This document shows positions 15,881-62,320 of a stretch of DNA of 64,000 nucleotides, in pieces (the stretch's first letter is position 1; each line of letters starts with the position of its first letter). The notes under the pieces are model-generated. The model was given only the letters and a program-made list of their open reading frames with translations. It was not told the origin of the DNA and searched no databases. The position numbers and the translations under genes were made by a program. Origin of the DNA: Octopus vulgaris (taxonomy: Eukaryota); the NCBI GenBank assembly GCA_951406725.2, contig OX597820.1, forward strand, positions 27,590,001 through 27,654,000, given 5' to 3'.

Positions 15881-16167
15881 ATTTATTATTATATATATAT
15901 ATATATATATATATATATATATAAAATAACCAACAAGGATATCCAGAGGTAATGCATTTTATAATGGGAGGCAAGGTTCACGATATCGGATGAATATCGC
16001 CTTCTCCTATTAAAATTGTTCTTTGTGTTGTTTCAAACGATACAGTATATGTCTTTATTTCAGTATTCATTGAACGTTCATGTCCGTGTCTGTAACTGGA
16101 AGTGAAATTTCCATTTCATTAACGGCAGCATTAATGTCTGTACTTTAACAAGAGATATTCGTCTCAC

Positions 16168-16210
16168 CGCCCGTTGACGAGGGACAACAATCCCGAAACT
16201 AGTTCGAGCG
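16168..16210 (+). ncRNA. Minimal type I hammerhead ribozyme motif (U3 variant), copy 1
   Basis: cgcccg-TTGACGA-ggga caacaa tccc-GAAA-c ta g-TT-cgagcg; stem I pairs at 5 of 6 positions; palindromic stem III actagt. Confidence 0.7.
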
Positions 16211-16525
16211 TATCACTCAGGCTTGCGAGGAAGGGATGGCCTCTCTTTGCAAATACTCCAAGGACACTGATATTGTGTCTAAAGCCAGCTTGAGACGAAG
16301 ATCTCTTGGGGCTATAAAGCTACAGTAACACCCCCTCCCCAATGTGGTTAGCCATGATTAGATGGCTTCTATACTTTACATTATCGAGCAATTACTGTTT
16401 CAATCTCATTCTGAGATTTAATTATGCTTACTTTTCGTTTTTCGACATCAGTGGCAGACGCCATTAGAAAAACTTATATATAATTTGCAAAGAAGCCTTC
16501 ACTTTCATCGCTACCTGGTGGTTAC

Positions 16526-16568
16526 CGCCCGTTGACGAGGGACAACAATCCCGAAACTAGTTCGAGCG
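16526..16568 (+). ncRNA. Minimal type I hammerhead ribozyme motif (U3 variant), copy 2
   Basis: Same sequence as 16168-16210. Confidence 0.7.
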
Positions 16569-18689
16569 TATCACTCAGGCTTGCGAGGAAGGGATGGCCT
16601 TCCTTTGCAAATACTCCAAGGACACTGATATTGTGTCTAAAGCCAGCTTGAGACGAAGATCTCTTGGAGCTATAAAGCTACAGTAACACCCCCTCCCCAA
16701 TGTGGTTAGCCATGATAAGATGGCTTCTATACTTTACATTTATTTACATAATTACACAGAATAAATGATGTGTGTCGCTCTCAGTAGACTATCTCAAGCT
16801 GTGTACATCTCGTTGTATCTCCGTTAACGCGGGCCCATTACCTCTGGAGAAACGACGTGCAGACAGGACTAGCCTGGAGGCCCCAGTGTGTGTTCAGTAA
16901 GCGTTTGCGGTGAAGAAGAGTGAGAAGCTGCATTACTTCTGGATATCCTTGCTGCTTATTTTAATTTTAATCTCCTTAGTTTGAAATCGTATCGATAATA
17001 CCGTACTAAATTCTGGTGCCTCAACGTGAGTACAATATTCCTCTGAATCTATCTATCTACCTATCTATCTATCTATCTATCTATCTATCTATCTATCTAT
17101 CTATCTATCTATCTATCTATCTATCTATCTATCTATCTATCTATCTATCTATCTTGACATTTCTGTGATAACGATCCCTATTGATCAATTTTTTTTTCCT
17201 CTCCCCCTTTTTTTTTAACTTTTTTTGTCCTCTTTCTCTCCTTTTACGATCCCTTTTGATCGAAACTCCCCCTTCCTTTTTTTTTTTTTTTAAACCTTCA
17301 AAAGAAAAGCTCTACCTTGTAATTTGTTCTATCTGTGTGCAGCCCTGTGTGGCTAATAAAGAAACATATCTATCTATCTATCTATCTATCTATCTATCTA
17401 TCTATCTATCTATCTATCTATCTATCTATCTATCTATCTATCTATCTATCTATCTATCTATCTATCTATCTATCTATCTATCTATCTATCTATCTATCTA
17501 TCTGTATATGTGTGTGTATGTGTGTATGTGTGTGCTTGTGTGTGAATATTTGTGTAATTGTATGTTTTTCGGTTCCTGTGTATAGATATATCTATATTCG
17601 TGTCTAGTAGCTATTTGACTTGTGTATTGCCAAGCTCACGCATGCACATACACAAAGGCCGTTCACATATGTAACGTATTACAAATACATACACATGAAG
17701 AGTCAACAGAGACAGACACACACGCACATAAACGCACAAACACACAGATACTCACACGCACACATACAGAAACACGAGCACACTGACACACAAAAACACA
17801 GACAAACAGACAGAAAGACCCACCCACACATGAATATACAGGGAAAGCGATAGCTATAGATATGAATGTATAGATAGATTTCAGCTTTATAAATAGAGAT
17901 CACTAAACAGACAGATGAATATGTGCAGGTATTTGTGTGCGTGTAGACCGACCGTCCTGTACAACTAACAGTGTGTTTACATTTTTGCATGTTTTGTATG
18001 CGTATATACATATATGTCTTTATTTCGGTATTCATTGAACGTTCATGTCCGTGTCTGTAACTGGAAGTGAAATTTCCATTTCATTAACGGCAGCAGATTT
18101 AATGTCTGTGACTATGTAACAATATACGGTCCACTGGGTACTTCTGTTCTAACCCAACATCTTTTACATTCCAAATCGGCATCCCCCACTATTTTATCCT
18201 TTATCACTGAGCACGTATCTCATTTGGCAATTTAACATAATATAATTTTCCCTGCCTTTTTGTGATGAATTGGCAAACTAGTAGAGCGGCAGACAAAACG
18301 ATTTCCCTTCTTTTTTTTATTCCAAAGATATATTCATGTTCAGAAATCATAAAACTTGCCAATATAGATTTCATGTTTCCTTCTTCCTGTGGATAAAATG
18401 AAATGTCTTCTTCAGCCGATTTAATAGAGTGGATCCCTCTCCTAAATTTATGACTTTATTTTCATCTCTGATAAAAAGAATTATTGCCACTGACAAAGAA
18501 AATAGTGGTCGGGGAGAATTATAGCAACATCGGTTCAGATCTTAGCGAATTTTTTTTTCGCTCTTAACCTTGTCTTTTCAAATCCCATCGAAAAATCTGA
18601 GCGTTATCTTTCATCCTTTCAGGATCGATATGATGTAATGGTTGCCTCTCGTAGACCAAGAAAGTAATGGTAGCCTCTCGAAGACCAAG

Positions 18690-18955
18690 AAATTCTTGCT
18701 GAACAACTTGCATAAGTGATTTGCATTTAGTGATGAAATGTATATGCTGTGCATTAAGCTCGCTCCCTTCATCAAATCAGCATTGCCTGAATAGTTACAA
18801 AGTGAACCATGTGTCATGTGTCGATGTGATTGCACAGCCACGTGAGATGAAGTGTTTGGCTGAAAAACGCAGCGTGCCATCCAGTCCAGGAATTGAAACA
18901 CGATTTCGTGATTATGGGTGCAAACCTTTAACTACTAGGCCATGCGCTGTCCACT
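18690..18955 (-). mobile_element. Old tRNA-headed SINE
   Basis: Minus strand begins gcgcatggcctagtagttaaagg..gtttcaattcctggac followed by a CORE-like centre. Confidence 0.65.
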
Positions 18956-59546: not shown

Positions 59547-59935
59547 GTGAACTCGGAATTTTGGGCCTCCAACCAGACCTTTGTAGCAGTGATCACTTCC
59601 GAATCGGAGTGAAATTTCGTTTCCCTGAGATGTTTCTTTAGTAGTGGAAAGAAATGTTTGTCGGAGGGTGCCATGACAGGAGGGAAAGGAGGATGGTTTA
59701 CCAAAATAAAGCTAAATTAGCGTATTTTCTTTCAAGTTTCATGTGTTGTGTGTGCTGGTGCATTGTCCTGCAAAAATAGAGCCCCCAAAAGCACAGCTTT
59801 GTACTGCGTTTCTGCTCCAAAGTTTCACGCAGTTCGTCCAACAGAAACAAGTAGTATTCTGCATCGATTGTGCGACCGTTTGGCAGATATTTTATAAGAA
59901 GTACTCCGTTTTTAACCCAGATCCATGAAGCCAGG
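59547..59935 (-). mobile_element. Mariner transposase remnant
   Basis: LQDNAPAHT; HPPFPPVMAPSDKHFFPLLKKHL..FHSDSEV. Confidence 0.8.
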
Positions 59936-60744
59936 ATCTTTCCAGCTGACTTGTTCTCGTCCTATTTTTTATAGATAGAAATAAAATTATTTGCAACAGG
60001 ATTTTAAAATAAATAAAAGCGTTTGTGAAGGGTTACACTGGAAACGATATATTAGTATCATTCCACGGTGATTTATACGCTATAAATATGTATACACCCA
60101 CCGATATTTTAATGAAAGGTGTTTTCAAGTGCACATATTAAATAAGATGATAGTACTAACTAATTATTCATGCGCTGCATACTCAACGCATGAAAAACCC
60201 CTCGTGGGAAACGGTGCTAAATATTTTATAAGATCTAATCACACATTTTATCACACATTTAATGATACTGAAATAACTGCTGTAGAAGTATACATAACGA
60301 ATGATCCAGTTCGGGAACGGTATACGTATTTCAGTACCCGTAATTTCAATTTAAATTTCCTTTTCATTAGGTAAATCAAAGCTGGTTTGTGTGTGTGTGT
60401 GTGTAGCATTTGTGCAGTATACTGGTCACCGAAGGTTGTTAAACAACTTACTGACTGGACATTTTCACCTTCGCTCCTAATATGCTTATGTTGTTGCTGA
60501 TGACAGTGTAACTCAGAGACTACTTACTCAGCCCTGTTAAGCTTATCTCTACAGATCTTATATAGAAATTATAGTCAGCACGAATTCTCTACGACGTTTC
60601 ATATCCGTGACGCCTAATGCAAACAACAATGAGATCGAAGATGGAAAATGGGTAATGTCACTTGCTAAAGTCATCTCTACAAATTTCCTATAGAGATAGC
60701 ATTAACAAGTGATGTTATAGCACTGCGAACACAGTAGAACACAG

Positions 60745-61102
60745 TATTTTGTCTATCGCTACGTTCTGAGTTCAAATTCCGCCGAGGTCGACTTTGCCTT
60801 TCATCCTTTAGGGGTCGATAAATTAAGTACCAGTTACGCGTTGGGGTCGATATGATCGACTTAATCCGTTTGTCTGTCCTTGTTTGTCCTCTCCGTGTTT
60901 AGCCCCTTGTGGGTAGTAAAGAAATAGGTATTTCATCCGTCTTTACGTTCTGAGTTCAAATTCTGCGAGGTTGACTTTACCTTCCAGCCTTCTGAGGTCG
61001 ATGAAATAAGTACCAGTTGAGGTCTAAGGTCGATGTAATCGACTATGCCTTCCTCCTCACCCCGGACTTGTTAGAATCTTGTGCCTAAATTTGAAACCAA
61101 TA
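60745..61102 (+). mobile_element. SINE family C dimer
   Basis: Two units joined at aagaaatag|gtatttc. Confidence 0.85.
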
Positions 61103-62214
61103 TCAAATGCTGCTGAATGAAAACTGTTTTTCATAGCAAGTTATTATATAAAAGACTTTACATGCGTTGAGCTATTGGACAGACAGTGTTTTGTATGTTA
61201 AAACTGGCCAAGTGAGACATACATGTTTGTGATTTTTCTCTAGCTATATCCAGATCATTGTCAATATCACCAAGCGATAATGTTAAAAAGTATTCTAGAG
61301 AACATAAATAATTGAGTATATTAAACCAAAATAATAAAAATAAAAGTTAGCAACAAGGTAGAAAACAAATAAAAGCTAAATATGTGCTTGCAGACAGAGA
61401 TAATCTACCCGAACTAAACTATCCACTGGAGGTTTACAACTTTAAATAATTTCAGCGAGGAAACTACAAGAGAGTCGCAGCTATTTAACTTAGAATCCAG
61501 TACGGTTGGATTGTTTTCCATAGCATAAAAACCGACAAAATTTTTTTCAGATCATTAAATAGAATGTCATTATCCTCTGCACTGACACATTACCTATTGT
61601 ATAAGCTGTTTGTTTTGCAATATTATCCTTATGTGTCTCATTCACTAAACTTTGCACAATGGTTTTCTTTGATGTTTCACTTTGCAAAATTGAAATTGCT
61701 CTGTGTATGTTGTAATTTTGTAATCATCATCAGTTTTGGTTGCATCTATCGAAAACGATCGAGTGAGTTTTCTATTATACGTTTTATTTTATCAGTTTTA
61801 TTTATTCATTTAACTAACAACTTTATAGCTGTTTGTATAGAGTTAAGTGTTTTATAAAGAACCGATAACTTGTTCGACAGGAATATTTGTTGTTGCGTTG
61901 TTGTTTAGCAATCTTACAAAACCATAGGTTTGTTTTGAAATAAAGAACAGGCTCGATTACATGGTTGGGGAAAGGTAGCTCAAGGTCGAGATATCTAGAT
62001 TATAGAACTGATCGATGAGGGTAAAAATGGTGGGGCAATCTAAACAACAACGGTTTATAAGTGCTTACACACACACAAACACACACAGACGTGTGCGTAT
62101 ATACAGGAGTAAGCACAGAAATGCAAAAGAAGTTGGAAAAAATAGTACTCCAATGCCGAAGGTAGGGTGGTGTTTTTTATTTTTGTTAAAGCGGCAAAAA
62201 CATCACAAAAAAGA

Positions 62215-62320
62215 TGCTACTCAGCGTTTCACGTTCCCGGAGGTCGGGCAGGTGTAATCAAGAATCTTGATCACGATCACATCTGCCTGACGTACGGGAA
62301 CGTGAAGCTCCCGGTAGCAG
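62215..62320. repeat. About 105-nt imperfect hairpin formed by two inverted decayed hammerhead-like motifs
   Basis: Plus arm: ctgc-CTGACGT-acg ggaa cgt-GAAG-c tcccg g-TA-gcag; minus arm: ctgc-CCGACCT-ccg ggaa cgt-GAAA-c gctga g-TA-gca. Confidence 0.65.

Follow-up and report, generated by a model that had tools for sequence, protein, structure and literature searches.

Dispersed repeat families of Octopus vulgaris carry minimal hammerhead motifs and marks of Penelope-type insertion

A stretch of 64,000 nucleotides from the genome of Octopus vulgaris (GenBank assembly GCA_951406725.2, contig OX597820.1, positions 27,590,001 to 27,654,000 of the forward strand; below, the window) was analysed for short elements with the motif of a minimal hammerhead ribozyme. 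The assembly comprises 2.8 Gb in 227 contigs, and the window is AT-rich and dense in microsatellites and repeat fragments. An earlier note on this DNA had fitted at least six elements and a weaker seventh to the order stem I, core, stem II, GAAA, stem III, UH, stem I, and had read them as non-autonomous, retrozyme-like families without an open reading frame (ORF), mobilised by the reverse transcriptase (RT) of Penelope-like elements (PLEs). All seven motifs belong to dispersed families, which are named here after them: A (16168/16526), B (31202/31775), C (36897), D (54183), E (59215), F (62283) and G (46682). The motifs are real and exceed chance. It is quite probable that they represent type I hammerhead folds of minimal form, seated at the 3' ends of Penelope-marked families, likely all copied by RT/GIY-YIG proteins of PLEs. 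The features are collected in Table 1.

Table 1. Hammerhead-bearing insertions and their parts in the window (positions counted from its first letter).
Feature	Position	Strand	Remarks
Family A insertion	16166..16740	+	1.6 head-to-tail copies of a 358-nt ORF-free unit
A hammerhead motif 1	16168..16210	+	U3-G8; stem II of 4 bp; stem III palindromic; cut predicted after 16204
A hammerhead motif 2	16526..16568	+	Predicted cut after 16562
Family B fold-back insertion	30920..32027		Flanked by (TA)n runs; unit of about 565 nt; long left and short right end
B hammerhead motif, inverted arm	31202..31263	-	Descriptor match
B hammerhead motif	31775..31836	+	C3-G8; long interrupted stem II without core-side closing pair
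Family C stub with short inverted arm	36796..37000	+	3' end of a PLE coding for RT and GIY-YIG
C hammerhead motif	36897..36946	+	Swapped G3-C8 core pair
Eighth hammerhead-like motif	45823..45865	+	Palindromic stem III; relative in L269 with canonical core
Family G stub	46560..46780	-	3' end of a PLE coding for RT and endonuclease
G hammerhead motif	46682..46717	-	U or C in place of A at position 6; position 7 variable
Family D inverted arm	53833..54035	-	Decayed hammerhead at 53886-53931
D tRNA-derived head	54043..54113	+	A box and B box
D linker	54114..54135	+	(AAT)n/(AAC)n
D hammerhead motif	54183..54228	+	Canonical core; bulged nucleotide before stem II; element end near 54290
Family E fold-back insertion	59090..59550		Sister subfamily continues upstream into a GIY-YIG frame
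E hammerhead motif	59214..59301	-	Long stem II; plus-arm copy at 59433-59520 decayed
Family F fold-back	62100..62330		Decayed hammerheads at 62215-62251 (-) and 62283-62319 (+)

With a generic descriptor (YUGANGA, stem I of at least 5 bp, palindromic stem III) three sites were found in the window against a mean of 0.0 in local dinucleotide shuffles, none of 100 of which attained three sites. The strict CUGANGA form gave one site, with 0.01 expected from shuffles. A tuned descriptor returned ten sites (mean 0.345; 0/200 shuffles as high), an excess that is inflated because the descriptor was adjusted after the families were known; the copies of E and F in the window escape it, and two of its ten matches (9125 and 37403) look like chance. 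A match of a loose descriptor, at 20736, was taken as chance since it sits in a frame resembling a long interspersed nuclear element (LINE). A search free of the palindrome requirement (strict core, free stem III) was performed on 1.16 Mb of fetched loci, where nine of 16 distinct motifs, four of the 16 being variants of family D, proved to have a perfectly palindromic stem III; ten shuffles of this set produced three matches, none palindromic. A motif rate above shuffled controls, on which the earlier note had made its reading depend, was thereby confirmed in the window and in the fetched loci. Among the Rfam matches listed, HH9 matched positions 16514-16584 with 31.2 bits (E 7e-4), under its gathering score of 52. 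An Rfam scan ranked by E-value was discarded, as it returned mostly microsatellite and hairpin miRNA matches.

Stems I and II pair and stem III is short and palindromic, with the exception of B, in which stem II has no closing pair. The proposed order of stems and core holds for six of the seven motifs within the window, the four palindromic stem III sequences given previously are correct, and the weaker motif at 46682 was borne out on the minus strand. The plus-strand copy at 62283 had been mis-folded: it has neither GAAA nor stem III, and it is decayed. The motif at 59215 is real, but its actual strand is the minus strand and stem II holds an insert of about 57 nt. A minimal type I hammerhead fold is supported. 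The core boxes (3-8 pair, GAAA, UH) were counted with family-specific patterns tolerating the F and G variants, and were intact in 34/36 arms of A, 31/33 of B, 29/31 of C, 33/50 of D, 26/35 of E, 14/40 of F and 25/29 of G.

The 3-8 core pair is U-G in A, C-G in B, D, E, F and G, and G-C in C. Core oddities are U or C at position 6 in G, C at position 4 in F, and the open stem II of B. In the anole PLE, a C3G/G8C swap partly restores cleavage (PMC11167929), and the core of C can therefore be regarded as a natural compensatory form; a literature search for natural G3-C8 led to one paper, in which the pertinent passage deals with an engineered variant. Monomer folds were better than shuffles in C and D only (z -3.0 and -2.3), the segments folded for E and F having clipped stem I. 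Duplex energies of stem III ranged from -0.2 to -9.8 kcal/mol. Copies of A, B and C are too alike for a covariation test, and core pairs vary between families only.

A first look at the genome gave 1918 candidates for A, 1966 for B, 1204 for C, 2765 for D, 2582 for E, 79 for F and 2961 for G, of which 40 each were scored; these figures are not copy numbers. Per family the best 25-30 loci were studied, so that the sample leans to copies resembling those of the window. Overlapping duplicate loci (two for A, four for B, one for C, three for F) were removed before inverted partners, unit wraps and core boxes were counted. Identity among copies is about 97-100% in A, B and C, 85-95% in D, E and G, and 71-86% in F; A, B and C are young, D, E and G older and F the oldest.

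Across copies the 3' ends cluster and the 5' ends vary. Five of the seven families combine fixed 3' ends with variable 5' truncation and unbiased fold-back inversions. An inverted partner arm within 1.5 kb was present at 10/28 loci of A, 8/21 of B, 10/24 of C, 20/30 of D and 10/25 of E; the count for F (17/22) is biased, its query having contained both arms. Two classes of 3' end could be distinguished in A (about +234 and +279) and in D (29 short, 25 long; n=54). Craig et al. describe PLE insertions as 5'-truncated, partially tandem, neighboured by an inverted copy, and with a 30-40 bp tail that is often one-sided (PMC8557442). The 5' truncation, the inverted 3'-end arm and the optional tail of 30-45 nt found here are PLE-type insertion, and the link to PLEs is supported. 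Inverted arms place the ribozymes on opposite strands and therefore offer no dimer within one transcript; a same-transcript dimer is possible only for the tandem arrangement of A and B.

Families A and B were recognised as closed non-coding units. Ribozymes on the same strand are spaced by 358 nt in A (two independent loci) and by 527-566 nt in B. In natural dimers the longest stop-free stretch is 55 aa for A and 58 aa for B, and neither an A box nor a B box was found in them. The 5' end wraps into the family's own 3' end at 12/28 loci of A and 14/21 of B, the reference locus included, and past the match the flanks are inverted family sequence or unrelated DNA, with one exception in B. Whole units fold better than their shuffles (z -4.5 for A and -5.3 to -8.6 for B), unlike the ends of C and E (-1.0 and -0.7). 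Within 3-kb loci, same-strand arrays hold at most two ribozymes. The 30 A, 25 B and 30 D loci contain no coding sequence of their own, and the 30 top GIY-YIG loci showed no link to any of the three families. An RT fragment in L024 was rejected as the parent of A, being 70-80% like the G-type RT and joined just upstream of the ribozyme at a single locus; an RT-like piece beside A in L009 is a neighbour in that one locus only. In A and B the units are young, lack an ORF and pair strongly with themselves; their insertions are longer than one unit, and both families are retrozyme-like. Both carry a type I hammerhead in consecutive units, the short tandem-unit feature of non-LTR (long terminal repeat) retrozymes. 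Because the arrays are short, a linear tandem transcript explains A and B as well as a circle does. None of the listed data sets that contain 16100-16800 is recorded as RNA; the contigs of four runs guessed to be RNA cover parts of unit A and show neither joints nor ends, a result that weighs on neither side. A diverged relative of unit A (14 differences over 190 nt) was seen in a single contig whose depth, 273, far exceeds that of most others, in run X8, which bears another organism label and whose RNA status is guessed.

For family C, coding sequence begins about 0.9 kb upstream of the ribozyme at 11 of 25 loci. The longer stretches include an 839-aa frame in L190 and frames of 392 and 615 aa, with one stop between them, in L186. 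The L190 frame gave a GIY-YIG match in Pfam (E 1.2e-5, above the cut-off) and a weak RVT_1 match (E 0.055); these were scored by the separate domains alone, the search with the entire frame returning nothing at E 0.01. The C frame resembles an RVT_1 and GIY-YIG protein of the same genome (E 3.6e-9), its atlas neighbours are eukaryotic RT clusters (0.97-0.98), and a PDB search with it gave no match. Among 25 walked loci of G, sense matches to RT/endonuclease lie upstream of the ribozyme in L321, L322 and L324, and a fourth, L315, shows such likeness by eye only; the frames of L305 and L315 had no Pfam match. In a sister subfamily of E the sequence continues upstream for at least 1.8 kb and has broken GIY-YIG-like frames in three of four extended loci, the frame lying about 1.2 kb upstream (Pfam E 5e-4, 20.7 bits where the cut-off is 22.6; atlas 0.94). 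C, G and the E sister subfamily represent the 3' ends of PLEs with coding sequence, reduced to stubs via 5' truncation, and the E copy of the window is probably such a stub too. The absence of an ORF claimed for all elements is therefore true of the window copies and fails for families C and G and the sister subfamily of E. Apart from A, B and D, the motifs are ordinary PLE stubs, E probably and F possibly among them. A mariner-like transposase remnant, so labelled by the look of its sequence, adjoins the C stub (37000-37400), and a short piece of the 3' end of family E lies at 16840-16980, just downstream of the A insertion.

Family D consists of a 70-nt tRNA-derived head and an (AAT)n linker followed by a PLE-type end with the hammerhead. 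The head lies within 700 nt at 23/30 loci selected by the ribozyme, and the ribozyme lies downstream at 23/30 loci selected by the head (window locus included). Because the pairing holds from both selections, D is a family and not a local scar. The head was not found in 652 kb of 193 other loci. Headless copies are truncated within or after the linker, or abut other repeats there. With 25 distinct tRNA sequences as the comparison set, the head is identical at 50 positions to a genomic tRNA-Arg(TCT) gene (z 8.4) and at 48 to tRNA-Arg(TCG) and tRNA-Ala. Of 54 full heads, 40 have the A box and 43 the B box. ARAGORN at a lowered threshold was left unused, as it made many false tRNA calls. The head starts at -8 to +2 of the first tRNA base in 36/63 cases, and at ribozyme-selected loci no head passes -17. 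In fold-backs of D, one tailed and one short end were seen in nine of ten scorable cases, and a flanking repeat of at least 7 nt in 6/10, against 7% in shuffled pairings. A tandem partner was found at 1/30 loci. No autonomous PLE partner with a common 3' end was found among the 193 other loci or the 30 GIY-YIG loci, a sample that is not genome-wide. D is a SINE-like (short interspersed nuclear element) chimera that likely borrows the Penelope enzyme. Octopus SINEs derived from tRNA-Arg, OR1 and OR2, were reportedly described by Ohshima and Okada in 1994; D may be one of them, so that a name for the family may already exist, if not an account of its ribozyme and PLE link.

Several head-selected D loci that have no ribozyme contain LINE sequence within the linker, which we take to be Dong/R4-like. 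Fragments given the same label lie in the window (42683-44934, minus strand) and in L225, L232, L233, L240 and L050, and related sequence splits the D head from the ribozyme. In three D copies (L241, L245 and L253), 69-110 nt upstream of the head are shared, perhaps as flank of a source locus.

Family F is probably among the truncated and opposite-strand hammerhead copies of PLEs. The motif of its minus arm has a damaged core, a fuller motif is present in other family members, and the fetched F copies fold back immediately upstream of the ribozyme. Further families were seen in the fetched loci. One PLE family (L200, L205 and relatives) has many intact 781-aa frames and a U3-A8 core (13 loci), and is apparently very young. 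The flanks of L016, L057, L081, L096, L138, L197, L201, L202, L215, L235, L319, L331 and others hold a dozen or more extra hammerhead families, with a palindromic stem III of 4-8 nt and a stem II of 30-60 nt.

The insertion marks can be understood from work on PLE proteins, which are reported to nick AT-rich DNA, to prime at two internal RNA sites that define the tail, and to use uncleaved RNA; the anole protein assists ribozyme cleavage, and cleavage is dispensable in vitro (PMC11167929). In the octopus, a PLE protein would bind an RNA module around and downstream of the hammerhead, so that the ribozyme region may double as a loading module. It would then nick AT-rich DNA and prime at one of two internal sites, giving a short or a tailed 3' end, and synthesis might often abort or fold back, giving 5' truncation and inverted arms. 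The template of C, D, E and G would likely be uncleaved RNA, because copies extend across the predicted cut, and cleavage would part the D head from the priming end. For A and B a multimeric or circular RNA is the likelier template, as many of their insertions are longer than one unit; two ribozymes in tandem could exchange their palindromic stem III and excise monomers, possibly with circularisation. D would likely owe its transcripts to RNA polymerase III (Pol III), acting at its own internal promoter, and this would free it of the tandem arrangement that other PLEs require for expression.

A more specific proposal is that D is a true Penelope-system SINE (a Pol III tRNA promoter with a captured PLE end and its hammerhead, genome-wide, without tandem arrangement and undescribed), that A and B are retrozyme circles with PLE scars, and that C is an active PLE with a natural G3-C8 core; to this combination we give even chances. 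Several observations weigh against the general explanation. The variants of B, G and F may be poor or dead ribozymes, the monomer folds of A, B, G and the 45823 motif are no better than shuffles, and the stem III duplexes of C (-0.2 kcal/mol) and D (-1.7 kcal/mol) are weak. Of nine Xenopus retrozyme dimers, one cleaved (bioRxiv 10.64898/2026.07.22.740005). G has no inverted partner within 1.5 kb at any of 25 loci. For E the upstream walk concerns the sister subfamily and not the window's own, no RT was reached in the extended loci and Pfam stayed below its cut-off. The fetched loci, which do not cover the genome, yielded no autonomous partner for A, B or D. The D head is not called a tRNA by Rfam; 13/63 heads align beyond -15, three of them by 69-110 nt into common upstream sequence, and runs of at least four T occur in 10/23 copies. 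These upstream extensions and T runs indicate that some D copies stem from read-through RNA. Finally, columns of D depart from the commonest letter by 4.2% in the core, 5.2% in the loop and 6.3% in the flank, so its copies appear to be under little selection and show no covariation; this weak core conservation is as expected for dead-on-arrival copies.

Among the other readings, chance fits of the motifs in AT-rich repeat DNA have a practically negligible probability: loose descriptors do match chance sites, as at 20736, but the shuffle controls refute this reading, and the motifs stand at the expected place in coding PLEs. It is also very improbable that all seven families are non-autonomous and retrozyme-like, as had first been proposed. 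The window copies have no ORF and A and B fit, yet C, G and the sister subfamily of E run upstream into PLE coding sequence, which refutes it for C and G. Non-autonomy stands for A and B as closed ORF-free units and for D with its tRNA head, and is lost for C, G and probably E. A serious competitor, to which we give somewhat less than an even chance, is that A and B are PLE ends with internal deletions, the copies being made from linear tandem transcripts, without circles, the ribozyme being a passive protein-binding fold. The short arrays, the dispensability of cleavage in vitro for the anole PLE (PMC11167929) and the open stem II of B speak for it. The strong self-pairing of whole units, unlike the ends of C and E, resembles retrozyme circles (PMC7229834), and the cores of A and B are nearly all intact, though the families are young.

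For D, it is unlikely that the head is an internal part of a longer RNA polymerase II read-through unit and no promoter. The heads that extend upstream and the T runs fit such a unit, but more than half of the heads start next to the first tRNA base, those at ribozyme-selected loci stay within -17, and the A and B boxes are kept. Still less probable is that D is an ordinary tRNA-SINE, mobilised by a LINE, into which a piece of a PLE was once captured and in which the ribozyme is a passenger. It would account for the tRNA head, the short tandem repeats at the shorter 3' end and the flanking duplications; LINE sequence of Dong/R4-like type often lies next to the (AAT)n, and no PLE partner was found among the fetched loci. 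Against it, fold-backs duplicate the 3' end at 20/30 loci, the tail is one-sided in 9/10 as in PLEs, and the LINE pieces interrupt the linker and do not end the element.

Other features of the window include a 30-bp tandem array of 36 copies (3463-4690), open in several frames, one of them rich in Asp, Asn and Gly; a 184-bp SINE-like unit in tandem copies (33303-33891, 48672-49157, 52228-52588 and 60744-61044); and a T-rich run of 486 nt (6846-7331) that may be an assembly artefact.

The enzyme that moves animal retrozymes and the purpose of PLE hammerheads are stated to be open in PMC7229834, PMC8557442 and PMC11167929. The young A and B copies (97-100%) with PLE insertion marks are direct genomic evidence for mobilisation by PLEs. 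D would widen the partnerships of SINEs from LINEs to PLEs and would delimit a short stretch of RNA that suffices for PLE priming in trans. Since a cut would destroy the full-length D template, D is also a natural test of protein binding versus cleavage as the role of the fold.

Much of the system is known. PLE minimal hammerheads, many per genome and with truncated and opposite-strand copies, were described by Cervera and de la Pena in 2014 (PMC4209133) and, by the account of a review (PMC6765202), by Lunse et al. in 2017. Like those of PMC4209133, the hammerheads of C, E, G and probably F are type I with a short stem I, a bulged base before stem II and a tiny palindromic stem III, and fall into many unrelated families per genome, mostly as single truncated or opposite-strand copies. 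The pertinent main text of that paper names U3-A8 only, whereas C has G3-C8, G has U or C at position 6 and position 4 is C in F; stem II inserts of 30-60 nt also occur in B, E and several flank families. Such variants may be listed by Lunse et al. A survey of octopus repeats reports 31 recently active PLE families, the words ribozyme and hammerhead being absent from its main text (PMC13282606). Searches of the literature on octopus hammerheads and on the OR1/OR2 SINEs turned up no account of the present families, although supplements and curated repeat libraries may hold them, and a description of a PLE-mobilised tRNA-SINE was not found in the literature searched.

Retrozymes have been proposed to be non-autonomous PLE derivatives (bioRxiv 10.64898/2026.07.22.740005). 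As in the animal non-LTR retrozymes described there and in PMC7229834, A and B are ORF-free units with a type I hammerhead each, in head-to-tail copies of low GC and high self-pairing, and the 358 nt of A fall within the 350-390 nt of mussel. They differ in being dispersed insertions of one to two units with PLE inversions and two 3' ends, not long arrays; their ribozymes are minimal and non-canonical, and B is longer than the reported circles of 170-400 nt. D resembles the schistosome SM-alpha and Sj-alpha elements (PMC6765202; SM-alpha also PMC8490949) in having a Pol III-type promoter followed by a type I hammerhead and no ORF. The schistosome elements are tandem repeats for which the pertinent passage of PMC6765202 names no PLE partner, whereas D is seldom tandem, its ribozyme is minimal and of PLE type, an (AAT)n linker is present, and its insertions show the PLE fold-back and tail. 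Non-coding elements with pseudo long terminal repeats (pLTRs) and head-to-tail insertions, mobilised by a PLE, are also known in the non-autonomous Chlamys elements, MRC1 among them (PMC8557442); hammerheads are missing from most Chlamys, and a tRNA head is not mentioned in the passages on them. New relative to this literature appear to be family D and the PLE scars on A and B, and the mixed origins of the families go beyond the first reading of the window.

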